From a virus: a stretch of DNA of 64,000 bases. A model generated the notes under the pieces. The model ran no database searches and had not been told where the DNA came from. It saw only the letters and a list, made by a program, of their open reading frames with translations. The first letter of the stretch is position 1; each line of letters starts with the position of its first letter. Positions 928 to 38,098 of this stretch are shown one piece after another. The stretch covers positions 1-64,000 of IMG/VR virus record IMGVR_UViG_3300048011_000525, one strand, 5' to 3'. Position numbers and translations under genes: made by a program.

Positions 928-1006
928 GTATTGAGGTTTCTAATTCTTTCCTCTCTAGTGCAAAAGAACGGTTGACAAGTGGGGAGAAAGACTGTATAAT
1001 AGCAGC

Positions 1007-1100
1007 CGAGGTTGAGGCATATAGAACCTTCGCCCATCGGGAGTGTTTGTCTTCTACTTGGGGAATTCAGTAGCCCTAACCCTCTTTGCCCTTATTGTTC
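1007..1100 (+). ncRNA. Candidate non-coding transcript complementary to early-gene leaders
   Basis: Promoter at 972-1000 has no ORF before 1252; the transcript contains GCCCTAACCCTCTTTGCCCTTATTGTT. Confidence 0.35.
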
Positions 1101-1104
1101 TTAT

Positions 1105-1133
1105 AGTATACCTTCACTCTAGTCAGAAGTCAA
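1105..1133 (-). promoter_or_regulatory. Leftward sigma70 promoter with no credible downstream ORF
   Basis: Reverse complement reads AAAGAGG-TTGACT-17nt-TATACT, the same cassette as the rightward early promoters. Confidence 0.75.
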
Positions 1134-1251
1134 CCTCTTTTTAGCCAAAATCTTATTTTATTTTTGTGGGTATTTTGGAGAGAAAAAGGTTGACAACAGC
1201 CGGAAATGAGGTTATACTGTATACAGTTAAACAATAAAGAGAGGGCTTAAT

Positions 1252-1491
1252 ATGTACGGAATGTTCACTAAAGAAGGAAATGAATTGGTCGCAAGGATCG
1301 CAGCAGCCGGTGAGAAACTCGCAGCACAAGATGGCGCAGCCAGTGCCTGGGGTTTTTGCTTGCGAAAGTTGGAGACTCTCAGCTATGGCGAAGGCTTTGG
1401 TGAGGCCACTGACACTGATGTGAGAGAGCGAGTCTACGGTGATGTGGTTGCAGCCGCAGATGACACTTGCGATTTTTATCTAGCTCATTGA
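1252..1491 (+). CDS. Hypothetical early protein
   Basis: 79 aa ORF with own promoter and GAGGGC leader. Confidence 0.8.
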   Translation: MYGMFTKEGNELVARIAAAGEKLAAQDGAASAWGFCLRKLETLSYGEGFGEATDTDVRERVYGDVVAAADDTCDFYLAH

Positions 1492-1570
1492 GCAGAAAAA
1501 GGTTGACAGCAGCCGGATTAGATGGTATACTGTATATAACAGTTAGGGCAATATGTGGAGGGCACAGCCG

Positions 1571-1912
1571 ATGAATTTTGTAATTTCAACTCAAGTATTA
1601 GAGAACTATGGCGCTCATTGTGAGGACGGCAAGTTCAGCAGCCAGAACCATTATTGGAAGATGAAGGGCGGCATGGACTATCTGGTCAAGGACCTGGACC
1701 GTGTGCAAGATGCGGTGGCGTTCGTAGCAGCCGCGTTTTCGGACAACAGCCTGGGGTATAAAGAGTTCCCCATCGAGTGGCAGACCGAAGAGGAATGGAT
1801 TGCTAAACTGCCGGACGATGCAGACTATCGTGACTTCCTCAAAGAGCAAGTTTGGGTGGTTAGCCCTAAGACGGGGCGAAAGCACACCAAAGGTTATCCG
1901 GAGGAGTTTTAA
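1571..1912 (+). CDS. Hypothetical early protein
   Basis: Start moved to the ATG after GGAGGGCA; own promoter. Confidence 0.8.
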   Translation: MNFVISTQVLENYGAHCEDGKFSSQNHYWKMKGGMDYLVKDLDRVQDAVAFVAAAFSDNSLGYKEFPIEWQTEEEWIAKLPDDADYRDFLKEQVWVVSPKTGRKHTKGYPEEF

Positions 1913-1913
1913 T

Positions 1914-2090
1914 ATGAATACCTGTTCACACTGTAAGTCAGAGGTTGAGAACAACGCTCTTCGTTGTCCTTACTGCCTAGAGAATCCATATGATAATTTC
2001 GCATTTGAAACTGGTGGAACCTTTTCAACCATACTGGAATGGATACTCGGAACAGCCGTGGTATTGGTTATCCTGGCTTGGATATTTTGA
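1914..2090 (+). CDS. Small zinc-ribbon membrane protein
   Basis: CxxC-x10-CxxC plus hydrophobic C-terminus; GGAGGAG RBS before ATG 1914. Confidence 0.75.
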   Translation: MNTCSHCKSEVENNALRCPYCLENPYDNFAFETGGTFSTILEWILGTAVVLVILAWIF

Positions 2091-2163
2091 GCAAAAAGAG
2101 GTTGACATCTCCTTAAAAGATGCTATTATATAAGAGTAAGTTAAACAAAGCGAGGGCAATAAG

Positions 2164-2373
2164 ATGGCAAATTCAAGAGACGTAGCACTAGAGTTGGTAG
2201 ACAACGGTTTGGTAACAGCCGAGGCGATGCTGACTATGTGCCTAAAGTATATGTCAACAGACGATGTTGAGGATATGCTTGACTGTAATGAGTTGAGCGA
2301 ACGGTTTATGGAAGACGATGACGGGCAGCCGACTTGGGAACAAGAGTGGGCAGACTTTGGGGAGGAATACTAA
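2164..2373 (+). CDS. Small acidic early protein
   Basis: 69 aa; promoter and GAGGGCA leader. Confidence 0.8.
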   Translation: MANSRDVALELVDNGLVTAEAMLTMCLKYMSTDDVEDMLDCNELSERFMEDDDGQPTWEQEWADFGEEY

Positions 2374-2374
2374 G

Positions 2375-2965
2375 ATGCCAAATTGGTGCAATAACAATAT
2401 CACGATTCAGGGATCAACTGAAACTATCAAAACACTTTGGGAAGAGGCTACAGCCGAAGATGGTGGACTGCTATCAGCAATGGTTCCTATGCCCAAGGCT
2501 CTAGAAGGAACTACATCACCTACACCACAAGAAGGTGCCAGCAACTACGAAGGTGAACAGCCGATAGTAGATGGCTACGACAATTGGTATGATTGGTCGG
2601 TGGCCCGATGGGGAACCAAGTGGGATGTATCCACAGAAGGACTAGAGTTTACGGACAACGGAGACGGCACAGCCTCGATCAGTGGTTGGTTCGACAGTGC
2701 ATGGGCTCCACCACTTACTGCATACGAAACATTCTGCGAAAGCATGGACGGTGTCTACATTGAAGCGAGTTATCACGAAGGTGGTATGGACTTCGGTGGC
2801 TTCTGGGATAGCGAGACCGGTGAAGAGCATATGGACGGCATCCAAGAGACTTGGGAACAGTATAAAGACAACCTCGACGATGCTCCTAGTCTGTTCAAAC
2901 GCATAGACGAAGAATACGGTCTATCCGATCAATACGCTGAATGGGAAGAAATGGAAATGGAATAA
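2375..2965 (+). CDS. DUF1281/YubB (Api92)-like protein
   Basis: MPNWCNN start, WGTKW and FDSAWAPP motifs; GGAGG RBS. Confidence 0.75.
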   Translation: MPNWCNNNITIQGSTETIKTLWEEATAEDGGLLSAMVPMPKALEGTTSPTPQEGASNYEGEQPIVDGYDNWYDWSVARWGTKWDVSTEGLEFTDNGDGTASISGWFDSAWAPPLTAYETFCESMDGVYIEASYHEGGMDFGGFWDSETGEEHMDGIQETWEQYKDNLDDAPSLFKRIDEEYGLSDQYAEWEEMEME

Positions 2966-3032
2966 AAGAGGTTGACAAGGATGTCTTCCTATGCTATAGT
3001 ATAAACACAATAAGAGATTAGGAGGGCATCCA

Positions 3033-3314
3033 ATGTCAACAGATTTAAGAAACGTTCCAGACTGTGTAGCACAGAACGAATTGACTCAGACACGCTTTTG
3101 GGGTGGCAAGGATCGATTGACTTGCATACAGATCACTCAACGCAAACCCAAGTATGATCCAGACAACGGCGGAGCAATGTTTAACCATATACAGTTGACC
3201 AAGCATCAAGCTCGTATGTTGGCAACAGAATTGATGTTGTTTGCAGAGGGCCGCGAAGTAGAAGAGTTGGCTGAGTTGGATGATGCAACATTTGGTGAAG
3301 AGGAGCCAGCGTAA
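3033..3314 (+). CDS. Hypothetical early protein
   Basis: Promoter and GAGGGCA leader. Confidence 0.8.
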   Translation: MSTDLRNVPDCVAQNELTQTRFWGGKDRLTCIQITQRKPKYDPDNGGAMFNHIQLTKHQARMLATELMLFAEGREVEELAELDDATFGEEEPA

Positions 3315-3514
3315 TGAGACGATCCTATCGTATATACGGAATCAAGGACGGTGGCAAGGAAGAGTTTGTCACTTCAGTATCCGCAGCAGCCGACGGCAAA
3401 GCTGCACACCAGGCAATGAAGCTGCAAGGCTACTTCGATCGCATCGTTTGTCGTGATGTGCTAGGTGGCTTGCGTTTTGAATATAATTTAAAAACTGGTA
3501 GAAAATTGGCATAA
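3314..3514 (+). CDS. Hypothetical early protein
   Basis: TAATG coupling to the upstream gene; GAGGAG RBS. Confidence 0.75.
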   Translation: MRRSYRIYGIKDGGKEEFVTSVSAAADGKAAHQAMKLQGYFDRIVCRDVLGGLRFEYNLKTGRKLA

Positions 3515-3586
3515 AAGAGGTTGACAACTGAGCACTTCGGTGCTATTATATAAGAGTAAGTTAACAAAGCTAGAAGGGCAAACAAA

Positions 3587-4051
3587 ATGGCAACACGTTC
3601 AAACATCGCATACAAAACAGCAGAAGGCAAAATCCGCAGCGTCTACAGCCACTGGGATGGCTATGTAGCAAACAATGGTCGCATCCTAGAGGAGAGCTAC
3701 CAGGACCAAGCAAAGATTGAAGCATTGGTTGCACTAGGTAGCATCAGCAGCCTGGGAGCAGAACTAGGCGAGCAGCAGGACTTCAACGATCGCAGCACAC
3801 AACAAGACGATTGGACACTAGCATATCATCGTGACCGTGGTGAAGATTTGGTTGTTAGCGAATACGACGACATTCCAAGTTGGATCAACGACATGGAGGA
3901 ATACGCTTACCTGTGGAACGGCAAGGAATGGCTTGTAAACGATCACGGTGCTAAGGACGCAAACGGCTTTCCTGTGTTCGACTTGCTGTCAACTGTAGTG
4001 CCAATCGAACTAGCACGTATGGAGCAGCGCATCGCAGCAGCCGCAAATTAA
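3587..4051 (+). CDS. Conserved-type phage hypothetical protein
   Basis: MxTRS...YxHWDGY motif; own promoter. Confidence 0.8.
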   Translation: MATRSNIAYKTAEGKIRSVYSHWDGYVANNGRILEESYQDQAKIEALVALGSISSLGAELGEQQDFNDRSTQQDDWTLAYHRDRGEDLVVSEYDDIPSWINDMEEYAYLWNGKEWLVNDHGAKDANGFPVFDLLSTVVPIELARMEQRIAAAAN

Positions 4052-4135
4052 TTTGGTATTTTGGCAAATTAGGGGTTGACAGCAGCCCCTAATGAGGCTA
4101 TACTATATATAACAGTTAGGAAAGAGGGCAAACAA

Positions 4136-4324
4136 ATGAAACAGACAATTGGTTTTATCTTAATCGTAGTAGGAATGATGGTAGCAGCCGGTAGTGCTGG
4201 GGACTGTGACGGACAGTGTATGGAATACGCTAACAGCCTGAGCGAGATGCTTATGATCGCAGCAGCCGGAATTTTTGCTATGGTAGTAGGTGCGTTGGCA
4301 GTTTTTTCTGCACAAAATGATTAA
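4136..4324 (+). CDS. Small two-TM membrane protein
   Basis: ATG after GAGGGCA; two hydrophobic segments flanking CDGQC. Confidence 0.75.
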   Translation: MKQTIGFILIVVGMMVAAGSAGDCDGQCMEYANSLSEMLMIAAAGIFAMVVGALAVFSAQND

Positions 4325-4395
4325 TTAGGGGTTGACAAACTCCGCAGTAGATGGTATACTGTATATAACAGTTAAACAATTGAGAGGCAAATAAC

Positions 4396-4713
4396 ATGAC
4401 ACAGAAAACTTTTGAAGTAGCAGGTACATCAACACTAAATGGCGTGACTAAGGTAAGGTTCGCAAATGACTATGTAGGTCGTTTCAAGATCCTTGTTAAG
4501 AACGGACACGAGAACATTGAGTTGATGGAACTAGGTGAGAAGATGACCAAGGCAGACATCTGCAAGGTATTGATTGCTCATCCAAACTTCCAAGGTGAAG
4601 ATCAGCAGAGTGCGATCGCAGAATTTGTTGTACGAAATGTGAAGGCGCAGCCGGAGCAGACAGAAACAACAAAGGTGGAAGCAGCCGAAGACGTCGAAGC
4701 AGAATTGGCGTAG
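4396..4713 (+). CDS. Hypothetical early protein
   Basis: 105 aa; own promoter; GAGGCA leader. Confidence 0.8.
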   Translation: MTQKTFEVAGTSTLNGVTKVRFANDYVGRFKILVKNGHENIELMELGEKMTKADICKVLIAHPNFQGEDQQSAIAEFVVRNVKAQPEQTETTKVEAAEDVEAELA

Positions 4714-4816
4714 GCACTTCCACAACCAGGGCGTCCTTGTGTAGCAGCCGGGACACTCCAATAGAGAGCGGTGGGGCTCATTGGACACATTATTGCAGCA
4801 GCCAGAGGATCGGGCA

Positions 4817-4945
4817 TTGGAACTAAATGAAATCATCGCAGTCGTAGGGATTGCATTCACATCATTCATGGCGGGGTATCTACTTTCAGAGATGCATTCA
4901 TTCCGCAAGTATATCAAAGAAAATTGTTTGAAGGAGACTTCATAA
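4817..4945 (+). CDS. Small single-TM protein (42 aa, not in ORF track)
   Basis: TTG start after AGAGGA; MELNEIIAVVGIAFTSFMAGYLL... Confidence 0.45.
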   Translation: MELNEIIAVVGIAFTSFMAGYLLSEMHSFRKYIKENCLKETS

Positions 4946-4952
4946 AGACTTA

Positions 4953-5029
4953 GGGCCTTTAGCTCAATTGGTTAGAGCACCGGACTCATAATCCGTAGGT
5001 TCCGAGTTCGAGTCTCGGAGGGCCCACCA
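4953..5029 (+). tRNA. tRNA with CAT anticodon, most likely tRNA-Ile2 (lysidine type)
   Basis: GGGCCTT/AGGGCCC acceptor stem, CTCATAA loop, TTCGAGT T-loop, encoded CCA; not initiator-like. Confidence 0.9.
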
Positions 5030-5034
5030 AGTAA

Positions 5035-5111
5035 CTGCCCTTAGCTCAGCAGGATAGAGCAAGAGATTTCTAATCTCTAGGTCGGGGGTTCGAATCCCTC
5101 AGGGCAGGCCA
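5035..5111 (+). tRNA. tRNA-Arg(TCT)
   Basis: CTGCCCT/AGGGCAG acceptor stem, AGAGA-TTTCTAA-TCTCT arm, CCA. Confidence 0.95.
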
Positions 5112-5115
5112 ATTA

Positions 5116-5199
5116 GCCTCCGTGGTGGAATAGGTAGACACAAGGGACTTAAAATCCCTCGCTTATGGCGTCCCGGTTCGAGTCCGGGCGGAGGCACCA
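5116..5199 (+). tRNA. tRNA-Leu(TAA)
   Basis: GCCTCCG/CGGAGGC acceptor stem, AGGGA-CTTAAAA-TCCCT arm, long variable arm, CCA. Confidence 0.95.
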
Positions 5200-5200
5200 A

Positions 5201-5300
5201 GTTTAGGGAGTTGAGCAGCCGAACGAGCCGCCCTCACTCAAAGGTACCGCAGCGTATGCCCTCACGCTAAGGAACGCTCCTCCCTAAGCCCTTTGGGCAG
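5201..5300 (+). ncRNA. Candidate structured sRNA with GCCCUC (anti-leader) loops
   Basis: Closing stem 5201-5210/5280-5289; inner hairpins TTGAG/CTCAA and AGCGT-ATGCCCTC-ACGCT. Confidence 0.6.
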
Positions 5301-5334
5301 CAGCCGAGGTTCCAGAACCATCAGGCATCAGTTT

Positions 5335-5364
5335 ATTATAACACAGAGCAGCCGGGGTTGTCAA
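5335..5364 (-). promoter_or_regulatory. Leftward sigma70 promoter, antisense to the sRNA/tRNA cluster
   Basis: Reverse complement TTTAGG-TTGACA-18nt-TATAAT. Confidence 0.7.
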
Positions 5365-5473
5365 CCTAAAAATAACCAAAATAAAATTAAAAAATGGCAA
5401 ATAAAAGGTTGACAGTAACAGCAAACGAGGCTATACTGTATACAGTTAAACAATAAAGCAAAGAGGGCAAACT

Positions 5474-5812
5474 ATGCTTACAATTACTAAAACTGGTTTT
5501 GAACAGAACGACGACTACACTAGCACTTTTTACGGTGTAGAAGGCGCGGTGACGCTTGCTGGCGACAGCTTATGGGGTGACACTGCGGGGCGAGTTGTTA
5601 ACGTTGAAGGCATTACTGTAACAGAAGAACAGTACGGTGAAGAGGCTGACGACAAGTACATGCACGTGACAGTGACACACGACAGCACGTGGGACATTTA
5701 CACTGACACTGCGTTTGCTGTAGCAATTAGCGAAGCGTTGGGCATGGACATTGACTTTACGGAGCAAGGCATGCAAGACGACGGACACGCGAGCATGGAA
5801 GTGTACAGTTAA
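5474..5812 (+). CDS. Hypothetical acidic early protein
   Basis: Promoter and GAGGGCA leader. Confidence 0.8.
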   Translation: MLTITKTGFEQNDDYTSTFYGVEGAVTLAGDSLWGDTAGRVVNVEGITVTEEQYGEEADDKYMHVTVTHDSTWDIYTDTAFAVAISEALGMDIDFTEQGMQDDGHASMEVYS

Positions 5813-5900
5813 AAAAGTGGCAAAAAAGAGGTTGACAACGGCCTCTTTGTTTGCTATACTGTATATAACAGTTAGGGCAATAAGTAGAAGGAACTACGCA

Positions 5901-6095
5901 ATGATCAAAGTATTCAACAGCGCATACCGTGAGTCGATCGAGCAGCCGAAGATGATTCCACTGGATGAAGTCAACATCGTAACACAGAACATCCACAACG
6001 GCGCTCCTTACATCTTGTTCGAGCACAAAGACTATCCGCTGGGCGCACTGAGCGCAACCTTCGACGGTGAGTATTGGGCTTGTGACCTTGATTGA
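5901..6095 (+). CDS. Hypothetical early protein
   Basis: ATG at 5901 after AAGGA; promoter at 5832. Confidence 0.7.
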   Translation: MIKVFNSAYRESIEQPKMIPLDEVNIVTQNIHNGAPYILFEHKDYPLGALSATFDGEYWACDLD

Positions 6096-6187
6096 TGATC
6101 CGTGTGATGATTGGTACCCATTAGGGGTTGACAAACCAAAGAAGTGACTGTATACTGTAAGTATAACAATTAGGAAAGAGGGCAAAC

Positions 6188-6457
6188 ATGGAAAAATCAA
6201 TTTACGAAGTAGGTGAACAGCACAAACAACTAGCAGCCGTTGGTAGACGCATGATGGACATGAGCGAGTATGCCAATTGCAAGGGCATGAAGGATGAAGA
6301 CTTCAAATTGCTCAACGACATGAGTCACGTAGGCAACCTGCTTACCAAATTGGGCAATGCGTTTGGTCCTAAGCTGGACAAAGACTTTACAGCCGAGGAT
6401 ATGGATTTAATTGCTCGTTTTATGAAAAAAGAGATTGACATTCCGCAGATGCGGTAG
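6188..6457 (+). CDS. Hypothetical early protein
   Basis: Promoter and GAGGGCA leader. Confidence 0.8.
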   Translation: MEKSIYEVGEQHKQLAAVGRRMMDMSEYANCKGMKDEDFKLLNDMSHVGNLLTKLGNAFGPKLDKDFTAEDMDLIARFMKKEIDIPQMR

Positions 6458-6495
6458 TATACTGTATATAACAATTAGGGCAAAGGGCAAAACAA

Positions 6496-6633
6496 ATGAT
6501 TAAAACACTAGGTTGGTTAACAGTAATTGGAATAGGTCTTTACACAGGGATCCTACAGGCCATGTTGATATTTGCTGGTGCTGCGGTTATTTGGGTTGGT
6601 ACTTTGCTCGCTAGTTTGGGAGGCGCGATATGA
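6496..6633 (+). CDS. Small hydrophobic membrane protein (45 aa, not in ORF track)
   Basis: Promoter at 6435, AGGGCA twice in the leader, MIKTLGWLTVIGIGL...; stop overlaps the next ATG. Confidence 0.7.
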   Translation: MIKTLGWLTVIGIGLYTGILQAMLIFAGAAVIWVGTLLASLGGAI

Positions 6634-6863
6634 AATGGGTTTTGATAGCAAGCGTTCTTAACTGGCAACCAGTATATGACGATCAGAAGACCTGTCAACT
6701 AGCAGCCGAAGAGCTCAAGAAGGTATATTACCAAGAAGTCGCTGCGTGTATTCCAAAGCCGACTAACACAGCCGGTGAGAATGAGAATGTGGACCGCATG
6801 TTCGAACAGTTCATGAATATGGTAAAAGAACTACAAAAAGAAGTTGACAACGGCAACAACTGA
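6630..6863 (+). CDS. Hypothetical protein
   Basis: ATGA overlap; GGAGG RBS. Confidence 0.75.
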   Translation: MKWVLIASVLNWQPVYDDQKTCQLAAEELKKVYYQEVAACIPKPTNTAGENENVDRMFEQFMNMVKELQKEVDNGNN

Positions 6864-6907
6864 ACGTATACTACATATATAAATTAACTTAACGCTGTGA
6901 GGGCACA

Positions 6908-7912
6908 ATGACAAACATTACAATCAAAGAAGGCACATACAAAATCCGTGGTAAAGACGTAGACCTATCAGGTATGACTTTTCCACTAGTAGAAGAATTC
7001 AAAGTAGGAGCACGAGGTGGCTACGTAACAGTAGACGGTTCAGCAGTTGCTGGCTTTCCACAGCGTAACATCAAGATCATGTGCGCAAGTGCAGATGACT
7101 ATGCCCAAACTGATGCTGCAATTAATACAGCAGCAGTAGAGGAGAGTGACGAAGAAGTTATCGAACGTATCCGTGAACGCTTTGACATGTTGAAGGACAT
7201 GACCAAAGCAGTCAAGAAAGGTGCTGTGCGAGCTATGATCGTTTCAGGACCTCCAGGTGTTGGTAAGTCGCATGGTGTAGAAGAAGTACTAGAGCGTTAC
7301 GACACACTAGAACATCTAGGTGGTTCCTCTAAGTATACAATTGTTAAAGGTGCAATGAGCCCAATCGGACTCTACTGTAAGCTGTTCAACTACGCAGACA
7401 AAGACAACGTTATCGTGTTCGATGACTGTGATGCGATCTTCGAAGAGCCACTTGCACTTAATATTTTAAAAGCTGCTCTAGACAGCAAGAAGAAACGTAC
7501 TATTCACTGGAACACAGACAGTTTCAAGTTGCGTAATGAAGGTGTGCCGGATTCATTCGAGTTCAAAGGTTCAGCGATCTTTATTACCAACCTTGACTTC
7601 CATGACGTAAAGAGCAAGAAGATACGCTCGCACTTGGAAGCACTAGAGTCACGTTGTCACTATATGGATTTAACTATCCACTCTGAGCGCGACAAGATGC
7701 TCAGAATTGCACAAGTCATCAAGGACGGAATGCTAGATAGTTATAAGGTGTCCGATGAAGTCAAAGAAGAAATCATTGATTTCGTGGACATTAATAAGAA
7801 GCGACTAAGAGAACTGTCATTGCGTACAGTACTTAAGGTAGCCGACTTAGCAGTTGCATTTCCAGATCGTTGGGAAGCAATGGCTGAGAACACTGTTATG
7901 AAACATTCTTAA
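6908..7912 (+). CDS. AAA+ family ATPase
   Basis: Walker A GPPGVGKS, Walker B VIVFDD, sensor ITN, ALESR arginine finger. Confidence 0.85.
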   Translation: MTNITIKEGTYKIRGKDVDLSGMTFPLVEEFKVGARGGYVTVDGSAVAGFPQRNIKIMCASADDYAQTDAAINTAAVEESDEEVIERIRERFDMLKDMTKAVKKGAVRAMIVSGPPGVGKSHGVEEVLERYDTLEHLGGSSKYTIVKGAMSPIGLYCKLFNYADKDNVIVFDDCDAIFEEPLALNILKAALDSKKKRTIHWNTDSFKLRNEGVPDSFEFKGSAIFITNLDFHDVKSKKIRSHLEALESRCHYMDLTIHSERDKMLRIAQVIKDGMLDSYKVSDEVKEEIIDFVDINKKRLRELSLRTVLKVADLAVAFPDRWEAMAENTVMKHS

Positions 7913-8034
7913 TGCCCTCAAGAATCATAACAGTTCAAGTGTTAAGCAGGCACCCCTCATAGCCCTCACGCTCTGCTAACACATGCGCCCGGAGTAGGAC
8001 ATGCCCTCGTCCAATACACTCCGGGCTTTTTTTT
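7892..8034 (+). ncRNA. Candidate 3-prime-UTR sRNA: three hairpins with GCCCUC loops ending in an intrinsic terminator
   Basis: Stems 7892-7934, 7939-7982, 7987-8026 followed by T8; GCCCTC at 7914, 7962, 8003. Confidence 0.65.
7987..8034 (+). terminator. Rho-independent terminator
   Basis: GCCCGGAGT...ACTCCGGGC followed by T8. Confidence 0.85.
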
Positions 8035-8120
8035 GATCTTTTTTTGATTTAGGGGTTGACACAGCCGCCATTTGATTATAAGCTGTATATAACAGTTAAC
8101 AAAGCAAGAGGGCAAAAGCA

Positions 8121-8513
8121 ATGACAACTGTAATTAAAGAGAACTTCCGCAAGTGTTCAGTAGAGGGATGCAACAAGCTGGGCCAGCACATGGGCAAGTA
8201 TCGCAAAGACGGATCACCTGTACGCAGAGCCAAGTGTGCCAAACATCATTCAATTGACTACGGCATGAAAGGTTGGGACTACAAGCAACACCGCAAAGAC
8301 TACTGTGAGAACCGTGACGGACGCTTGGGCTTCACCTGCACATCAACTATTGTAGATCCAGAGTGGCAACTAGACGCAGATCACATCAACGGCAACCCAA
8401 GCGACAATCGTCCTGAGAACATACAGACACTGTGCAAGTGCTGTCACCCAATCAAAACTAAAATGGAAGGTGATTACCTAACAGCCGGTCGCAAAGCATA
8501 CGGGGTAAAATAA
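8121..8513 (+). CDS. HNH endonuclease-like zinc protein
   Basis: DHINGNPSDNRPENIQTLCKCCH. Confidence 0.8.
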   Translation: MTTVIKENFRKCSVEGCNKLGQHMGKYRKDGSPVRRAKCAKHHSIDYGMKGWDYKQHRKDYCENRDGRLGFTCTSTIVDPEWQLDADHINGNPSDNRPENIQTLCKCCHPIKTKMEGDYLTAGRKAYGVK

Positions 8514-8599
8514 TTACGCAATTTGGTAAAAAAGAGGTTGACAACCGGCCTCTTTTTTTATATACTGTATATAACAGTTAAGCAAATGAGGGCAAACAA

Positions 8600-8971
8600 A
8601 TGCTAGTAACTAAACACACCGAGGAAAGCACACACAAGTTTTTTGCAATAGCAGACATTGAAGCTCGTGCTCGTGCAGCGTACAATGCAAACAAGCAGCT
8701 ATTTGAAAGTGCTGCACACCAGCAGCGTGTAGAACTTGTAGACACTATACTACGCAACATGCTCGCGGGCTACACTACAGCATATCAAACTGCTCGCGCT
8801 GCTACTAAACGCAAAGCAGCACACACAGAAGTCAAGTACGACCGCGTAATACAATACACAAGCAACAAGCACAAGCAGCTACGTGCAGCAGCCGTTGAGC
8901 AACTAGCAGCACTTGGACTTGACTTAGTATACAAACCCAAAACAAACAGCTATAGCGTACACGTACTATAG
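8600..8971 (+). CDS. Hypothetical basic early protein
   Basis: Promoter and GAGGGCA leader. Confidence 0.8.
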   Translation: MLVTKHTEESTHKFFAIADIEARARAAYNANKQLFESAAHQQRVELVDTILRNMLAGYTTAYQTARAATKRKAAHTEVKYDRVIQYTSNKHKQLRAAAVEQLAALGLDLVYKPKTNSYSVHVL

Positions 8972-9071
8972 CAGCCGCGGCCTGTGGATAACTTTTTGGT
9001 AAAAAAGAGGTTGACAAACACACACTCAGATCATATACTGTATGTATAAGTTAAAGCAAAGAGGGCACAAT

Positions 9072-9332
9072 ATGAAACGCAACATTAGAGCAGCATACAC
9101 AAAACTAAAAGCACTTGGTGCTCCCGTGTATGAAGGTGGTTGGAATGGTGAAGACACATTCCGAATCTCAGGAGAGGACAACGGCGACACCCTTTGGGCA
9201 GACTACTATGAAGAGTTTGTGCCCAGCACATGGGAGTTTGGTGTTAATCCTATTATCACTAAGGTACTGGACAAGCATGGCTTGTTTGCAGAATGGTGCA
9301 ATGCTGGTGTGCTTAATGTATATGAGAATTGA
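9072..9332 (+). CDS. Hypothetical early protein
   Basis: ATG at 9072 after GAGGGCA. Confidence 0.8.
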   Translation: MKRNIRAAYTKLKALGAPVYEGGWNGEDTFRISGEDNGDTLWADYYEEFVPSTWEFGVNPIITKVLDKHGLFAEWCNAGVLNVYEN

Positions 9333-9403
9333 GCAAATAAAGGTTGACACACAGCACACAGATGCTATACTGTATATATAAATTAACGTAGAGGGCTAAA
9401 CAA

Positions 9404-9946: not shown

Positions 9947-9967
9947 GAAGAACTGTGTGTGGGAAAA

Positions 9968-9996
9968 GATCCTTGCGTGATGCAGGGATTTTTTTT
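9968..9996 (+). terminator. Intrinsic terminator closing the early module
   Basis: ATCCTTGC-GTGAT-GCAGGGAT followed by a T run. Confidence 0.75.
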
Positions 9997-10118
9997 GAAT
10001 TTTTTTTATTTTCGAGACCGGGGGGTCGGGGCTTATAAACACTAGTAAAATCAACAACTTACAAGTCCTTAATGACCGTTTTTTAAAACCATGGTCTAGA
10101 AATCACCACCTCACTTCT

Positions 10119-10347
10119 GTAAGTACTTCACCTAAATTTTTCGTAGCGCAACTTTTTACACTGTAGAACCCATTTCGGACTATATACACATGAAGGGAGA
10201 TCAACTATGTGTAACTGTGAAACATGTACTTGCAAAGACTGTAAGTGCTAATCTAATGTTGTGCGCAAAACTAACCATATGGAATGTGTAAGTACTCCAC
10301 CAAATTTTTTTGCGCACAATTTTTTTCTCACTACAAACCCCTTTTCG
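10119..10347 (+). repeat. Two imperfect direct repeats of about 60 nt
   Basis: 10119-10177 and 10288-10347 share GTAAGTACTyCACC..AAATTTTT..TTTTT..CACT..AACCC.TTTCG. Confidence 0.65.
10207..10251 (+). CDS. Candidate Cys-rich metallothionein-like micropeptide (MCNCETCTCKDCKC)
   Basis: AAGGGAG 7 nt upstream; 6 Cys in 14 aa. Confidence 0.5.
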   Translation: MCNCETCTCKDCKC

Positions 10348-10465
10348 AGCGTAGCGTATACACACGAGTACTAGCGAGTGTGTTATGTACGCAGTACATA
10401 CTGTATAGTCTAAACGAGAACCTCTTAACTGTGCGCTACGGTGTTACGCACTTATAAATACTTTT

Positions 10466-10563
10466 GTAAGCACAGTGTACATCACAGTTTGAACATGTGT
10501 CACAAGTTTGCGTAAGTTTACGTTATATAAAAAAAGCAGACTAGCTGACTACACTGTGCTTAC
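10466..10563 (+). ncRNA. Candidate late structured RNA
   Basis: TATAAATA at 10453; 14-bp perfect inverted repeat GTAAGCACAGTGTA/TACACTGTGCTTAC; T-rich tail. Confidence 0.35.
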
Positions 10564-10686
10564 TTTTATCTTTTATGCATAAGTACTATATGACAGTCAA
10601 CTCAATCATAATTGTATACTCGTGTGCAGTACTACATGCTATTACATTACCCATATGGATATATCTACTCTTACTTGCGTTTTAAC

Positions 10687-10890
10687 ATGTACACACTAAC
10701 ACTAAATTACGAGTCAAGCACAACATCGTATATGCAAGACATCAACACGTTTACATTTGCTACAGAGCTGTTGTTGCGAGGCATACACTGTGATCAACCA
10801 AGTGATTGTACACTTGTGTTTTGGAGTGAGTCAGATCTACTATATGCTACGCTTGCATACAAAGGAACAGCTACTCTAGCTTGGGATTAG
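10687..10890 (+). CDS. Hypothetical protein (start uncertain)
   Basis: Part of ORF 10612-10890; plausible ATG at 10687. Confidence 0.4.
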   Translation: MYTLTLNYESSTTSYMQDINTFTFATELLLRGIHCDQPSDCTLVFWSESDLLYATLAYKGTATLAWD

Positions 10891-11057
10891 AATGGTGTCT
10901 GTGCGCTTATATAAGCGTCATACAGCAGGTTTTATTGTTTGGGGCTTGTGTGATACTACGGTGTAAAATTTTGCTTAGAGCTAACTAGCGTTAGCTGCTT
11001 CGCAGCTTTTTGTGCTTTAACCGCGATGCGGCTTTTTGGCGCAAACGCTTCGCGCTG

Positions 11058-12165: not shown

Positions 12166-13809
12166 TTATGTTACTGTAAAGATATATGGACTAACGTTTG
12201 TTGTTAGTGGCTGTTTGCCATATCTACTGTATAGCATTCTGTTTGGGCTGCCCATTATACTATCTAATATGCGACCATAGTCTGTAGAGCTGCCTGTGTC
12301 GTACACAACAGCAGTACTATCTCCTATGATACGATCTTTTATTTGTGCAGGAGTTAAATTAGGATTTACTTGCAAATGCTGTGCTATTACTCCCGCAACT
12401 TGAGGTGCAGCCATCGATGTCCCGCCAATGCTGGTCACTCTAAAAAACAATCCTCCTAGTCCCGGAACACTGCTAACATCAACTGGATATTCAATAGTAG
12501 TGTAACCATCTGTTACTCTTGACGTTGCTGCTGTTATTTCTGAGCCTGGCGCCCATATGTTAACTCCTGGTCCTCTTGAACTAGAGCTTGCTGTTTGGTC
12601 TAGTGCTTTTTCTTGATCAGTATATGTCTCTGCAAGGTATGCACTAAAGCTATCGTCAATGTTACCTACCATAAAGCAGTTATCACTGTAAGGACTAGAT
12701 CCTCGGTGATAGTTATATGTATTACCATTAAACACCACAGTGTTATTATAATCACTGCCACCAACTACATCTATTTTATTATAGTTGTTGCCTGCTGCTA
12801 TACAGATGTGTATACCGTCTGTGATCATGTCTTCTACTTCTGCGTCAACGCTTGCTACACGAGTTGCTTGTCTAAAGAATGTATTTGAACCTGCATCGAT
12901 AAATCTATCTCTACTAACACCAGTAGCATCTTCTAGCTCACTTCTTGTGTTATAGTCCACACCGTAAGTCCAAGCAGTTCCTCTATAAACGCCCGTCGTA
13001 GGATCAGTACTAAGAGTAGCACCATAACCCCAGCTCATATTAACAACTGTAGGGCGGCCGTTAGTTTTATTATTGTGCCACAGTCTAATTGTATCAAATG
13101 CATCTGATATGCTAATGCCAGTGCCAGGGTCACTAGGGCCTTCTAGTCCTGCTAGTTTTTGTGAATATATGTGTGCGCCTTTAGCCCAGCCGTAGAGCTT
13201 ACCAGCAGCAATACTGGCGCAATGCGTACCATGGCCGTCATAGTCACCATAGTGATTAGCGTCTTGGGTTCCCGAAAGTCCGGACTCAGTGTACCAGTCT
13301 ATTTGTTGTAGCCTACTAGTAGTGCCACTATCAAACCAGTCAGGGTGTAGTGGGTCTATGCCTGAGTCTTGAATAACAACATCAACCCCTGTACCATCTA
13401 CAGCATATTCATACTGCCCTTCTATTTCTGTAAGTCTAGTAATACCATCTGTATCAACAAAGTTATTAGCGTCTGCCATACAACGTCTTAGGCCCCAATT
13501 ACGGTAGTCGCTTTGTAATCCACTGCCTCTATAGAACGTGCCTCGTTGTGAAGCATTTAGTCCAATACTAATATCGTCACGCTGTTCTGGGGGTATCTCT
13601 ACAGCACGTACTCTAGGGTCTTTGCGCAGCTCTTCTGCTTCTTCATCTGTAAGCATAAAGTGTGTTTGTATCTTAGAACCTAGGCGTGGGTTAGCAACGT
13701 CAACTGAGCGATCGGGTATAGGGCCTGCTCCACTGCTCGCAGTAATCTCTGCTTCTAGTGCGGGCAAGTCTTCTCGTGTGTTGGCTATTACTGTGTATTC
13801 TCTTTCCAT
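12166..13809 (-). CDS. Subtilisin-like S8 serine protease
   Basis: VVIQDSG, GHGTHCAS, AAGN, GGTSMAAPQVAG. Confidence 0.92.
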   Translation of the reverse strand: MEREYTVIANTREDLPALEAEITASSGAGPIPDRSVDVANPRLGSKIQTHFMLTDEEAEELRKDPRVRAVEIPPEQRDDISIGLNASQRGTFYRGSGLQSDYRNWGLRRCMADANNFVDTDGITRLTEIEGQYEYAVDGTGVDVVIQDSGIDPLHPDWFDSGTTSRLQQIDWYTESGLSGTQDANHYGDYDGHGTHCASIAAGKLYGWAKGAHIYSQKLAGLEGPSDPGTGISISDAFDTIRLWHNNKTNGRPTVVNMSWGYGATLSTDPTTGVYRGTAWTYGVDYNTRSELEDATGVSRDRFIDAGSNTFFRQATRVASVDAEVEDMITDGIHICIAAGNNYNKIDVVGGSDYNNTVVFNGNTYNYHRGSSPYSDNCFMVGNIDDSFSAYLAETYTDQEKALDQTASSSSRGPGVNIWAPGSEITAATSRVTDGYTTIEYPVDVSSVPGLGGLFFRVTSIGGTSMAAPQVAGVIAQHLQVNPNLTPAQIKDRIIGDSTAVVYDTGSSTDYGRILDSIMGSPNRMLYSRYGKQPLTTNVSPYIFTVT

Positions 13810-22012: not shown

Positions 22013-23749
22013 TTAAAAATATACTTTGAAACCAGTTTTCCAGTTACGCCCTAATTGACTATAACCGTTTGGTCTCTGGTATTCCTTATTACTAATGTTA
22101 TATATCCCTGCAAACACTTCTAAGTTATTTTTTTTATAATTTAATTCTGTATTATAAATTACTATAGGATCTATATTCATTGTTTCAAATGTTATACTAT
22201 TAATATCTTTGTGCTTGCCATAGTAGTCTGCGTCAAAAGAATACACAATGTTGTCTACTATTGTTGCTAGTTTTAAATTATTAGTAACTTTAGGACGTCT
22301 TAGTTTTTGATTACCATTTGATGTCTTAGCATCTATAACAGCAACATTATTTTCTATAAAGAACTGTCCTATTTCATAGTTAAGTGTATTTTCAATACCT
22401 TTAGTGTAACTTGTATTGTTGTCGTTAATATATGTGCCATTATATACTATAGCATTTTGTTCTTGTGTTACAAACAAAGCCGTGTTTGAAAAGTTATTTT
22501 CGTAACCTATTTCATAACTTATAGTATCTTCTTCTAATAGATTAGGGTTACCTGTAAAGCCGTAATTGTCCTGTCCGTACATTTCGTATAGTGTTGGAAT
22601 TCTATATCCTGTTGATACACTAGCTCGCACACCGTTATTAAAGATACCTATTCTTCCTGTATTCTTTTCTCCGAATTCGTTTATGATATCATGTCTTATA
22701 CCATATGCTAGTGCAGTGTTGCCGATTATAGTATTTGAATTTATAAAAATACCTTTAGTTGTTCTCTTCTTGTCTACACTGCTTGTATAAGGAAACGCAC
22801 TATTAATGTTTATTAAAAAGTCTGCACTAACCTTTTCAACTTCAGTGCCAATAATTACATCAGTATTATTATAATTTAATTTATGCGATCCGTAGAAGGT
22901 GTCTACTGTACTATCATAGTCGCCTTCTAATTTAAAATCTTTTGTGTACACTCTATTATGATTAGAATTATTATACGTTAGTCTACTTTTTTCATTTGTA
23001 TAATCTAACTGTATGTTTTGCCAATTCCACTTGCCTGTATAATTTAATGTATCTGTTGTTGAGTCTAGTGCAGAATAATTTGTTTCGTTTATATAATTAA
23101 CCCGTATGTTATTATGATCGTCACTGTGTACTAAATTTAAATTTATGTTATCGTAATCATGGGGGTCTTTTTCTTCGCCATTTGGATAAACACTTATGCC
23201 GTCAGTTTGAAAAGACTCGATACTAACAGTATAGTTTAAGGTTGGAGATATCTGTCCTGATAGTTGTGCTTCTGCTGTAAGTAAATTATTACTACCCACA
23301 GTTGAGGAAATATACGATCTACCTGTAATATCAGATACTAAGTTAATTACACCTCCAGATGCATTAGCACCGTATGAACTGCTCATAGGACCTTTGTATA
23401 GTTCTATATTACTAATACCTGTAAAGTTATGTTGACCAATATCGTCAGTGCCAGTAGGGCTACTTTGATCTTTGATTGAAATGCCATTGAGTGTTATAAG
23501 GCTCTGATCGCTATCTGCTCCTCTAATATACAAAGAGCTCATTTGTCCTTTTGGTCCACTAGATAATATATCCACACTAGACACTTCGTTGAGTTCGTCT
23601 GTTTCTATAATTTCATAAGAGTACGTCGAGTTTGCAAAATACGACGGTGTCCTATCGGCATATACATAAATTACTAGCTCTGTAGCAAATGTTGAGGTCG
23701 CAAAAAAAGCCGCGAAAAACGCGACTAATAGTTTATTATAATTATTCAT
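22013..23749 (-). CDS. TonB-dependent outer-membrane receptor (BtuB-like)
   Basis: Signal peptide, plug IRG, IELYKGPMSSSYGANASGGVINLV, GNPNLLEE, C-terminal GR..KTGFKVYF. Confidence 0.88.
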   Translation of the reverse strand: MNNYNKLLVAFFAAFFATSTFATELVIYVYADRTPSYFANSTYSYEIIETDELNEVSSVDILSSGPKGQMSSLYIRGADSDQSLITLNGISIKDQSSPTGTDDIGQHNFTGISNIELYKGPMSSSYGANASGGVINLVSDITGRSYISSTVGSNNLLTAEAQLSGQISPTLNYTVSIESFQTDGISVYPNGEEKDPHDYDNINLNLVHSDDHNNIRVNYINETNYSALDSTTDTLNYTGKWNWQNIQLDYTNEKSRLTYNNSNHNRVYTKDFKLEGDYDSTVDTFYGSHKLNYNNTDVIIGTEVEKVSADFLININSAFPYTSSVDKKRTTKGIFINSNTIIGNTALAYGIRHDIINEFGEKNTGRIGIFNNGVRASVSTGYRIPTLYEMYGQDNYGFTGNPNLLEEDTISYEIGYENNFSNTALFVTQEQNAIVYNGTYINDNNTSYTKGIENTLNYEIGQFFIENNVAVIDAKTSNGNQKLRRPKVTNNLKLATIVDNIVYSFDADYYGKHKDINSITFETMNIDPIVIYNTELNYKKNNLEVFAGIYNISNKEYQRPNGYSQLGRNWKTGFKVYF

Positions 23750-35484: not shown

Positions 35485-36407
35485 ATGTACTGACGCATAT
35501 GCTTCCAGCAGGAGCCGTCTTCTAATTCACTAAACTTCCAATGAAACATACTAATGCGTTCTAACCACTTTTGTCTATCAAACTCTTTTGGATTTTCAAT
35601 ATTTTCAAATCCGTGATGTGAAACTTCTGCACATTGACTAGTCGCAGGATCCGTTATAAAAGCATGGTATCCTTGTATAATAGGTCCTACAATAGCACTA
35701 CTGTTATGGTTAACTACGGCCCAACAGTTAACTAAATCTTTTTCTATGTTGTCTCTATTACTACTAAGAGCAACTTTATTAATTTTTCTTAATGTTTGTG
35801 CAATCTTATTTGCTTGTCTATTAGATTCATTATCTTTAGGATGCAACCTAACAATAATTGGGCGATCACTGTGATTGCGTATTTTTGTACAAGTAACTAA
35901 TAACCAATCAATTAACTTATGTTTACCTAAACTCCAGCCGCCTTCTCGTTGAGCACAAATTAAAATATGATTTCCGTTTGACTTTGTATTTTCTAGAGTA
36001 ATATTGGTATCTGTACTAATTTGTTGCCATCGCTTAGTATCTATGTCTGTATCACAATAGATACCAGTATTTGGAAATACGCCGTCAAAACTATATCTTA
36101 AATAATGATGCGGTGCATTTGTCTTATTAGCATATAAGAATAAATTAGCATCACCACTAACAACATGCTTATTATTAGTACAGTCAATAACACTTTGACG
36201 CAATCGTAAGTGAGGTGCATTTTTGCCACGTTCATGTTGCCAGCCTTGTATTACGCCCACGTCGGCATCTATTAAGGTGTTGCCTGTATGTAATACTCCT
36301 GTATCTCCTACTGCATTAACGCCTTGTACAAATTTAGTTAATATGTTAAACTTTTCTTGGCTTTTGTTTTTGCTAGGCACTACATTATAGTAACTAACTA
36401 CTTTCAC
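35481..36407 (-). CDS. KpsS/KpsC-like capsule biosynthesis glycosyltransferase
   Basis: LICAQ, VRLHP, AVVNHNSS, RQKWL; resembles 33209-34063. Confidence 0.55.
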   Translation of the reverse strand: MKVVSYYNVVPSKNKSQEKFNILTKFVQGVNAVGDTGVLHTGNTLIDADVGVIQGWQHERGKNAPHLRLRQSVIDCTNNKHVVSGDANLFLYANKTNAPHHYLRYSFDGVFPNTGIYCDTDIDTKRWQQISTDTNITLENTKSNGNHILICAQREGGWSLGKHKLIDWLLVTCTKIRNHSDRPIIVRLHPKDNESNRQANKIAQTLRKINKVALSSNRDNIEKDLVNCWAVVNHNSSAIVGPIIQGYHAFITDPATSQCAEVSHHGFENIENPKEFDRQKWLERISMFHWKFSELEDGSCWKHMRQYI

Positions 36408-38098
36408 TTAACTATTTCCCAAGCATAGCCGCTCATCATTTCTTCACGGTTAAATTGGCAATAACTTAGATGACACATTAAAGAATGCATTTCGTCTTTA
36501 TCTGGCATATTAAGATTTTCAACATCGGTTAAACTTGTATTACATACTGCTGTAGCACAGTTGGGACCTAGTGCAATAGCAGGTTTACCAAAATTTAATG
36601 CTTCGAGTGCTGCAATACTGTTATATGTAATAACACAGTATACATCATCTGCCATTGCTGCTTCTAATGATTGATTAGTGATTCTATCTCTACGATCTGG
36701 TTTTAGTCTAATTTCAATAGGACGATCAGTATACTTACGCAACTCGTTACTTACATTATTAACCCACTCTTCTGGCATTGGTTGATCCCATAACATCATA
36801 ACTTTTTCGCTAGGCGGAACTAATAGAATTTTTTTACCTTCACCTTTAAATTTTTTATATTTCCAATTTAATAATCTATCATCAGGTCTACTAACAATTG
36901 ATTGCGTATTTTGTAATTCGTTCTTTGTAACACGATGCCATATCTTTGCTTTACTACCTTCGTTGCCAAAATATCCTGTATCAATAGCATAAAACTCTCT
37001 ACCAGTTTCCCAACAGTGTTTAATAGCTTTGCGACTTCCGCCGCCAAGACCTCTGATAATTAAAGGTGTATCGGTAGTTTCTTCTGTCTTCCAGTCACTT
37101 AGTCGACCATTACTGCCAATTACAAAAGATTGCAAGTACTCATCGTATTGCAATCCATCCTTATAATTACTAATACCTTCTTCAGGCGCAATTGCAGCAT
37201 TTTTGTGAACAGTGCCTTTCATAAATTTATTTTGTATAACTTTCATGGCTTCTTCCTGTGTATTGCTGTAGTACTTACCGTGTATGTCCAGCGGTCCGGT
37301 TATTAATGTATGTATTGCTGTTTTTAAATCTTCAGGCAATGTTAATGCATTAAAGTGCGAACCTTTTGATTTTGCGTTAATTACTTTTTGTTCAGCGCCT
37401 TTAATACTTTCTAATAGATACTTACGTTCAGCTCTATAATATTCTAAGTTGTACTCACAGTCTTTATATTCTTCAAACCAAGGGCCGCCTTCTGTGTAAT
37501 GTAAAAACTTAGGCTTGCCGTCTTTAGGCTCTTTGTACCAACCTACTAACCAGTTCCATTCGTGACTGATCTTGCCTATTTCGCTATCATTAAGCCAGCT
37601 AAATCTATGTAAATACTTGCCATCAATGTCTGGGTCGTTTACTAAGTCTTTTGTTAGTTTTTCATTTGAAGGGTGACCACAGTTGAATAACATCATGCTT
37701 GACCAATTTTTACGTGGATAGTTAAGTTGTTGTTTGCCATCCATCTTTGTGCCTTCTTTTGGCGTATAATCATGCTGTGCGCACATTACTGCATATTTGT
37801 CGTCTGCTTGATCAAATAGTTTTTTAACATCATCGAGTGCAATAAAGTCACAGTCGATAAACAATGCCCAGCCATTAAATTCAGCAAGTTCTGGTACAAG
37901 AAATCTAGTAAATGTAAATTCAGTGCTTGCTAGTTTATCTGATTTGCGCCAGTATAAACCTTCTCGTTTTAAATTACGCTGCTTTAGCGGAACAATTTCA
38001 ACATTAACACTTGCAGTATCTATTAGGCTTTGTTTACAGGCCTGAAAAGCTATGTCTTCTCTACTATCCCAACCTACATAAATTCTTAATGGTTCCAT
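36404..38098 (-). CDS. Two-domain glycosyltransferase (GT8-like plus KpsS-like)
   Basis: STEFTFTRF, DCD, PRKNWSS, HYTEGGPW; C-terminal VITYNS.AALEA...GKP. Confidence 0.75.
   Translation of the reverse strand: MEPLRIYVGWDSREDIAFQACKQSLIDTASVNVEIVPLKQRNLKREGLYWRKSDKLASTEFTFTRFLVPELAEFNGWALFIDCDFIALDDVKKLFDQADDKYAVMCAQHDYTPKEGTKMDGKQQLNYPRKNWSSMMLFNCGHPSNEKLTKDLVNDPDIDGKYLHRFSWLNDSEIGKISHEWNWLVGWYKEPKDGKPKFLHYTEGGPWFEEYKDCEYNLEYYRAERKYLLESIKGAEQKVINAKSKGSHFNALTLPEDLKTAIHTLITGPLDIHGKYYSNTQEEAMKVIQNKFMKGTVHKNAAIAPEEGISNYKDGLQYDEYLQSFVIGSNGRLSDWKTEETTDTPLIIRGLGGGSRKAIKHCWETGREFYAIDTGYFGNEGSKAKIWHRVTKNELQNTQSIVSRPDDRLLNWKYKKFKGEGKKILLVPPSEKVMMLWDQPMPEEWVNNVSNELRKYTDRPIEIRLKPDRRDRITNQSLEAAMADDVYCVITYNSIAALEALNFGKPAIALGPNCATAVCNTSLTDVENLNMPDKDEMHSLMCHLSYCQFNREEMMSGYAWEIVK

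Follow-up and report, generated by a model that had tools for sequence, protein, structure and literature searches.

The shut-off of the first gene set in large lytic phages is known in few models, where it is carried out by proteins (the RegB nuclease of T4; gp44/50/51 of SPO1). Small RNAs encoded by phages and acting on ribosome-binding sites include the c4 antisense RNA of P1 and P7 (RF01695) and the CI RNA of P4. They are cut from a longer transcript by tRNA-processing enzymes, and their loops base-pair with phage genes in the ribosome-binding region. The c4 RNA controls one operon (icd-ant) in lysogenic immunity, whereas the element described here, a trailer behind a tRNA cluster, lies in an early module of the lytic type and faces a box shared between genes; it gave no match to RF01695, the Rfam model of c4. 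Saito and Richardson reportedly observed in 1981 that the 3' end of a T7 early mRNA pairs with the ribosome-binding site of gene 1.1/1.2 if the RNase III site R1.3 is left unprocessed. The T7 case resembles what is proposed for our trailer in that a 3'-proximal sequence of an early transcript is able to reduce translation by pairing with a ribosome-binding site further upstream, but R1.3 is a single case, with no repeated loop motif, no link to a tRNA and no shared box.

Two further systems come from cellular bacteria. RNase E frees the 3' external transcribed spacer (3'ETS) of glyW-cysT-leuZ, an RNA that acts on other RNAs by base pairing (bioRxiv 10.1101/2021.04.25.441314). In this E. coli 3'ETS-leuZ, as in our element, the RNA lies directly behind the last tRNA of its operon, a tRNA-Leu, and includes the end hairpin. 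It is freed by tRNA maturation and acts by base pairing, and we propose that the phage trailer may do the same. The differences are that 3'ETS-leuZ sponges RyhB and RybB via a single-stranded stretch, whereas the presumed partners of the phage trailer are mRNA ribosome-binding sites and its motifs are in loops, and that 3'ETS-leuZ ends in a U-tailed terminator, whereas the copy of the phage trailer studied here has no U-run and no sequence likeness to it. In the icaR mRNA of Staphylococcus aureus, the anti-SD motif UCCCCUG of the 3' UTR pairs with the mRNA's own Shine-Dalgarno (SD) sequence and blocks initiation (PMC3868564). Both icaR and the trailer have a C-rich motif in a 3' region that is complementary to a Shine-Dalgarno region. 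The icaR motif acts on one host gene, on itself and in cis, whereas the trailer motif matches the box of at least a dozen phage early genes and is present in several copies, located in covarying hairpin loops, with one copy tied to a tRNA cluster. In protein sponges of the CsrB/RsmZ type, the loops show the leader motif itself; those of the trailer show its complement. Full-text literature searches found no paper describing such an element or system in phages, and we regard the trailer as a variant of the tRNA-trailer and 3'-UTR anti-SD regulators, with a well-supported structure and a mechanism for which the evidence is suggestive.

The element behind the tRNA cluster

The DNA analysed (64,000 nucleotides, here called the window) is the first 64 kb of an IMG/VR virus of 115.6 kb. 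The virus, a myovirus without a close cultured relative, has a tail sheath and a T4-type terminase; near-identical DNA is present in seawater and estuary metagenomes. Its initial 10 kb form a rightward early module of about 20 small genes, nearly all with a near-consensus sigma-70 promoter and a short conserved leader upstream. A scan for promoters and terminators showed that the early genes mostly have their own promoter and that terminators are absent in between. ARAGORN and Rfam placed a tRNA cluster at positions 4953-5199, composed of Met(CAU), Arg(UCU) and Leu(UAA), the last of which (5116-5199, + strand; 58.2 bits with the Rfam tRNA model) has an encoded CCA. The nearest early sigma-70-type promoter upstream of the tRNAs is located at 4332-4360 (+ strand, 11/12), and the consensus scan found no + strand promoter between it and the tRNAs; its transcript presumably carries the gene at 4396-4713, the three tRNAs and the element. 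A blastn search of 5200-5470 against cultured phages gave no match, and the matches of a wider stretch were to the tRNAs only.

The whole element, as delimited by its sequence, minimum-energy fold, homologues and covariation, occupies 5201-5289 of the + strand. The CCA of tRNA-Leu ends at 5199, A5200 is a linker and the element begins at 5201, one nucleotide after the CCA, as an earlier note on this DNA had read it from the letters. The same note had described a 10-bp closing stem with a U-G pair available on the + strand only, two GCCCUC motifs and an AGCGT/ACGCT hairpin, and all three were recovered: the outer stem (5201-5210/5280-5289) is paired at 10 of 10 positions including U5202.G5288, which is feasible on the + strand only, the motifs are at 5230-5235 and 5258-5263, and the hairpin forms in the minimum-energy fold. 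After a 2-nt bulge, this fold continues with an inner GAGC/GCUC stem (5213-5216/5276-5279), and then with a junction bearing two apical hairpins. Hairpin a (5225-5239, + strand) has a 3-bp GAG/CUC stem (5225-5227/5237-5239) and a 9-nt loop with the first motif (anti-box 1), and hairpin b (5251-5268, + strand) has a 5-bp stem (5251-5255/5264-5268) and an 8-nt loop (5256-5263) with the second (anti-box 2). The mean unpaired probabilities calculated with the partition function were 0.78 for anti-box 1 and 0.99 for anti-box 2.

Two details of the earlier description fared less well. The letters of its TTGAG/CTCAA stem (5211-5215/5237-5241) are present, but the fold and the relatives favour the GAGC/GCUC and GAG/CUC stems instead; the proposed stem is not kept in two relatives (L147 and L150) and is broken by the substitution T5212A of a near-identical variant found in two RNA-library contigs. 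Its GCCC-TTT-GGGC hairpin exists in the sequence and in the fold (5288-5298, + strand), where it holds GCCCUU, a near-copy of the anti-box, but it overlaps the base of the closing stem by two pairs and is absent from the relatives. The view that the element is not a tRNA was upheld, since ARAGORN saw just the three tRNAs at 4953-5199, and a permissive Rfam scan of 5100-5420 gave no tRNA-clan match past 5196. The Rfam search that the note had proposed as a check also brought no known family to light: the families of Rfam 15 (including RF01695 and the HDV-like, hatchet and twister ribozymes) gave no match at gathering scores, and E values up to 10 gave just noise matches that straddled the element or lay outside it. 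Ribozymes of the HDV-like/theta, hatchet or twister kind were rejected as candidates for the RNA behind the tRNA; no model matched, and the simple nested stem is unlike a double pseudoknot.

The fold energy of the window copy alone is not significantly stable (z = -1.46), a value that a chance inverted repeat or a decayed tRNA fragment without function could also give. Related IMG/VR loci (L-numbers) were fetched via the neighbouring 105-aa and 112-aa proteins and an AAA-ATPase, yielding more than 100 loci, many of which carry the same three tRNAs in varying order. A homologous hairpin is located 1 to 12 bases after the last tRNA (Leu, Arg or Met) in 13 distinct sequences. Six of the 13 are single-tier, their 11-bp stem closing a loop of some 20 nt, and seven, including the window, are tiered, with an outer stem of 8-10 bp, a short bulge and an inner stem of 4-5 bp, to which an apical stem of 3-6 bp closing an 8-9-nt loop is often added. 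The stems share little sequence, and GCCCUC is always in the loop.

MAFFT misaligned the 3' arms when applied to all homologues, and covariation was therefore counted on two structurally uniform subsets. In the outer stem of six single-tier homologues, 98.5% of the cells were paired and 6 of the 11 pairs had changed on both sides; in that of six two-tier homologues, 88% were paired and 7 of the 9-10 pairs had changed on both sides. None of 500 shuffles reached the observed covariation in either subset, and RNAalifold independently predicted the same outer stem. The inner 5-bp stem exists in four mutually compensating sequence versions among the homologues. The single-tier set held five G.U cells and zero A.C cells, which, together with the U5202.G5288 pair of the window, identifies the + strand as the folded RNA strand. 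It is because of these homologues with covarying stems, and not of the fold stability of the window copy alone, that the element stands beyond chance. The comparative data (a structure conserved and covarying in 13 relatives, and a conserved loop motif) contradict the reading as a chance repeat or decay product, to which we give practically no weight; the element is also devoid of tRNA-like features. The position of the element, its fold, its conservation and its identity as a + strand RNA are established.

Hairpin a is the copy common to all relatives, and equivalent mini-stems of other sequences are found in L147, L158, L175, L153 and L016. Hairpin b is an insertion with respect to the nearest relatives (L147 and L150), specific to the window phage and its closest kin, and it resembles hairpins that follow the ATPase gene in L018, L199 and L210. 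Four loci (L018, L020, L023 and L154) have the leader box described below and no element behind the tRNAs. A pattern scan of IMG/VR for the loop motif together with TAAGAC returned 118 loci, nearly all of them chance matches in coding DNA; the true loci were only L015/L119 and L025/L026, with L136 doubtful.

The early ribosome-binding box and its complement

The sequence GAGGGC, of which the loop motif is the complement, occurs in 15 + strand copies in the 115.6-kb genome, with 14 in 1241-9391 and 12 a few bases before a start codon. The presumed targets, with GAGGGC(A) at the ribosome-binding position according to a motif count, are at 1241, 1558, 2152, 3022, 4124, 5463, 6178, 6899, 8108, 8588, 9061 and 9391 (+ strand, within 1241-9396), so that the exposed loops are complementary to the box at 12 early start sites. 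GCCCTC occurs in six + strand copies genome-wide, two in the trailer and three at 7914-8003. The relatives contributed 364 distinct leaders with the box, and GCCCTC was by far the commonest 6-mer in the strong + strand hairpin loops of the lineage (83 of 681 distinct hairpins); the stems of many of these GCCCUC-loop hairpins contain G.U pairs. The box is restricted to early genes and the loops are exposed.

The two window loops, paired with 16 early leaders, gave median hybrid energies of -13.4 and -12.7 kcal/mol, compared with -6.3 kcal/mol for an E. coli-type anti-SD, which may not be the 16S 3' end of the host, on the same 16 leaders, and with -3.8 and -2.9 kcal/mol for the two loops on 97 non-early start regions. 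Complementarity between loop and box always extends over 6 nt, and a 7th pair (U opposite the A after the box) is available in about half of the loops. Flank profiles agreed only 5' of the loop motif; on its 3' side the next base is a purine, unable to pair with the purine usually located 5' of the box. RNAcofold paired the leaders with the 3' tail (the GCCCUU mini-hairpin) instead, and it cannot model kissing between loop and leader; duplex energies of the whole element are inflated by stem sequences. A special extended match to the ATPase leader, of 8 nt in the window, was tried and rejected, as it is not kept by the relatives.

Sister elements with GCCCUC at 7914, 7962 and 8003 are found behind the AAA-ATPase gene (7892-8035, + strand), as seen in the sequence and in relatives. 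The copy at 7914 is located at the ATPase stop codon, and that at 8003 is in the loop of an inner hairpin inside a terminator stem (7985-8035) that is followed by T8. Two to four hairpins in tandem follow the ATPase gene of the relatives, with conserved loop words, varying stems and several G.U pairs. Distant ATPase relatives (L212-L225) have no intergenic space behind the gene, and hence allowed no comparison of hairpins. In lineage 1, the first hairpin behind the ATPase gene (7914-7940) often has GCUCCG as well, the complement of a GGAGC-type box, and a minority of the lineage-1 leaders use a box of this type (e.g. L016, L163 and L194).

A second lineage (L002-L014, records G001-G005), reached via the 112-aa protein, has the early leader box GGAGC(G/A)A, i.e. 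GGAGCGAA. Behind the ATPase homologue of G005 (59% identical), at locus L227 (G005:C1:13650-13950; also L228), two tandem hairpins with unrelated stems have identical 9-nt loops, AUUCGCUCC, and the second is followed by a U-run. The same loop word, AUUCGCUCC, is present in G003 in a hairpin ahead of a terminator, while L004 (2195-2290) has two loops with UUCGCUCC and L003 (2201-2223) has one loop with UUGCUCC. A census of lineage-2 loop words did not rank the anti-box first, and included too few hairpins. The loop word thus differs between the lineages, and in each it is the complement of the lineage's own early box. Because the loop word tracks the box from one lineage to the other, RNA-RNA pairing is favoured over a protein site; the match in two lineages, which comprises a handful of hairpins, is the strongest argument for such pairing.

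The earlier note had taken the trailer for a member of an anti-leader family. The family itself is borne out, as the loops complement the leader box, the trailer groups with the hairpins at 7892-8035 and the second lineage has its own complementary pair; the pairing and the repression implied by the name are predictions, as is the release by tRNA 3' processing of an RNA of about 90-100 nt that the note had envisaged.

The end of the transcription unit

Like intrinsic terminators, the trailer has a G+C-rich stem where a transcription unit ends, and five homologues (L150, L158, L171, L175 and L153) have a U-run right after the stem, followed by the next rightward promoter. The trailer of these five is, by its sequence, a predicted intrinsic terminator, and thereby has the U-tailed end of tRNA 3'-trailer RNAs, which the window lacks: no intrinsic terminator was predicted at 5201-5300, and there are at most three T per 8-base window just after the stem. 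The trailer also differs from intrinsic terminators by its loops, which are very large and conserved in sequence.

The element could be a hairpin for boundary, processing or stability only, which would halt transcription or make it pause, protect against 3' exonucleases and set the 3' end of tRNA-Leu, with a loop that serves a phage or host protein or the folding of the hairpin and that does not pair with leaders. The U-runs of the five relatives agree with this, as does the sister at 7985-8035, which is itself a terminator and at which an RNA-library contig ends (8036); tandem hairpins with one loop sequence and varying stems resemble protein-binding arrays, and the complement of the loop extends on one side only. 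A protein site, on the other hand, has no reason to be complementary to the box, nor to switch with the box in lineage 2, terminators rarely have loops of 19 to 45 nt, and the U-run is missing in 8 of the 13 homologues. We consider this reading rather unlikely.

The lack of a terminator in the window copy also bears on whether the loops act in cis only, by pairing with boxes on the same read-through transcript and silencing or insulating its cistrons, with transcripts from the genes' own promoters being the main ones translated and no free small RNA being made. Transcripts of the window probably reach the box at 5463, most early genes have their own promoter with no terminator between them, and the icaR 3' UTR (PMC3868564) provides a precedent. 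An element with an immediate U-run, as in the relatives, cannot reach downstream boxes, however, and the position after a tRNA, where host enzymes cut, favours release. Action in cis and in trans are compatible, and action in cis exclusively appears distinctly unlikely.

A leftward promoter of the sigma-70 type (5335-5364, - strand, 12/12) faces the element and the tRNAs; it has perfect hexamers 18 nt apart and an extended -10 TG, and its transcription is predicted to start near 5326-5328. Such a promoter is located 40-75 bases downstream of the element in the window, L147, L015, L016 and L207 (12/12) and in L192 (10/12). None of the homologues with a leftward promoter has a U-run, so that the two features never co-occur, and three (L186, L025 and L162) have neither. 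This suggests that the opposing promoter takes the terminator's place or gives rise to an antisense RNA able to pair with the trailer, the association being weak and based on related sequences (n=13). The antisense RNA from 5335-5364 would carry the GAGGGC box twice and could neutralise the loops.

This RNA (from 5364-5335) might even be the active species, as a decoy for the anti-box hairpins or by forming an RNase III site on the tRNA precursor. The + strand element would in that case be the partner or target of this RNA and not the regulator. The perfect-consensus promoter is kept in the window, L147, L015, L016, L207 and L192, all without a U-run, the predicted start is close to 5326, where an RNA-library contig ends, and there is a similar face-to-face promoter pair at 972-1000 and 1133-1105. 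Against this, 8 of 14 homologues (L207 included) keep the element without a leftward promoter, the G.U pairs favour folding of the + strand, and the antisense RNA is poorly conserved over its first 40 nt and has short frames that differ and are not conserved among the relatives. We hold an antisense RNA as the active species to be very doubtful, and retain the + strand trailer.

The evidence for transcripts comes from assembled metatranscriptome contigs, which give one depth per contig and may include DNA carry-over; bins without RNA-contig cover (e.g. 5470-5783 and 8139-8452) are uninformative. Contigs from two libraries, 5054-5414 (from tRNA-Arg) and 4952-5326, join the tRNAs to the element without a break. 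The end of the latter at 5326 adjoins the predicted leftward start, which is a weak hint. A contig of depth 951 (7682-8036) ends at the U-run of the terminator behind the ATPase gene, and this single end is likewise a hint.

The facing promoters near the left end are a rightward one at 972-1000 (12/12) and a leftward one at 1133-1105; the latter leads into a leader-like sequence that no gene follows. The transcript of the rightward promoter would include about 28 nt, at 1073-1100, that are complementary to the consensus early leader and single-stranded in the fold. An 8-bp end-to-end stem followed by U5 could close an RNA of about 135 nt at 972-1145; the + strand RNA 1005-1145 showed no excess fold stability (z = 0.08). 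A homologue of the 972-1145 cassette is present at L022:1-75. A further leftward promoter-like site (6671-6698, - strand, 11/12) is located within the coding frame 6630-6863.

A proposed brake on early translation and further features of the genome

The element is probably the 3' trailer of an early tRNA operon and an RNA brake on early protein synthesis, and we give a probability of about 50% to pairing of the trailer with early leaders, in trans or in cis, as a selected function. Members of its lineage-wide family would mark the ends of early transcription units and show the complement of the private box in open apical loops. Host tRNA maturation would detach the trailer, with RNase P acting at the 5' sides and an RNase E-type enzyme cutting the A/U-rich linker behind the CCA, and the detached stable hairpin would persist. 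Its GCCCUC loops would pair with GAGGGC(A) in early mRNA leaders, in trans or on the same long transcript, and this pairing would compete with the 30S subunit and lower or stop translation of the early set as the trailer accumulates. The same hairpin would close the transcription unit, as an intrinsic terminator in relatives; in the window, which has no U-run, the leftward promoter may close the unit via its transcription or its antisense RNA. A timing mechanism must be assumed, because the element and its presumed targets would be produced simultaneously.

If the pairing is true, it would provide a compact, RNA-only timing or capping of early translation, in which host tRNA processing makes the regulator. 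More tentatively, it is possible that the whole forms an RNA-only shut-off circuit for the host-takeover module, with a private box, anti-box boundary RNAs, antidote RNAs and co-evolution of box and anti-box. The anti-box RNAs of such a circuit would accumulate in stable form and would comprise the trailer of the tRNAs, the hairpin array that follows the ATPase gene and the 972-1000 transcript, which is antisense through the leader-like cassette; the antidote RNAs, with the box in them, would come from opposing consensus promoters. Early genes seem to be tagged with a private ribosome-binding box across a whole group of uncultured marine myoviruses, and a shared leader box together with its complement in 3' hairpin loops could be used as an annotation signature when early modules and their regulators are sought in metagenomic phages.

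An ordinary terminator (9962-9996), the loop of which has no GCCCUC, closes the early module; about 1 kb of non-coding DNA, rich in neither genes nor promoters described here but containing T-runs and repeats, separates it from a leftward gene block (region 9960-11000). The left end of the contig (1-720), ahead of the first promoter, has dense direct repeats of short words (CACTATATAG-like and GTCACTA-like). Several related contigs of about 116 kb also stop at the early module, which suggests a physical genome end or a terminal repeat.

The word CAGCCG, mostly as RCAGCCG, occurs in 38 + strand copies in the 115.6-kb genome, 31 of them within 1003-8972, where coding and non-coding DNA contain it alike; the - strand has just 6 copies. 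The bias is also present in L015 (22 vs 0 in 6.3 kb) and not in more distant relatives; two copies flank or enter the element (5215 and 5300). The word is thus a polar, lineage-specific DNA or RNA signal, and a Chi-like site or a nuclease or packaging signal are guesses at its role. Outside the early module, the - strand of the window encodes a subtilase (12166-13809), a phage-borne TonB-dependent receptor with Plug and beta-barrel domains (22013-23749) and a family-8 glycosyltransferase (36404-38098).
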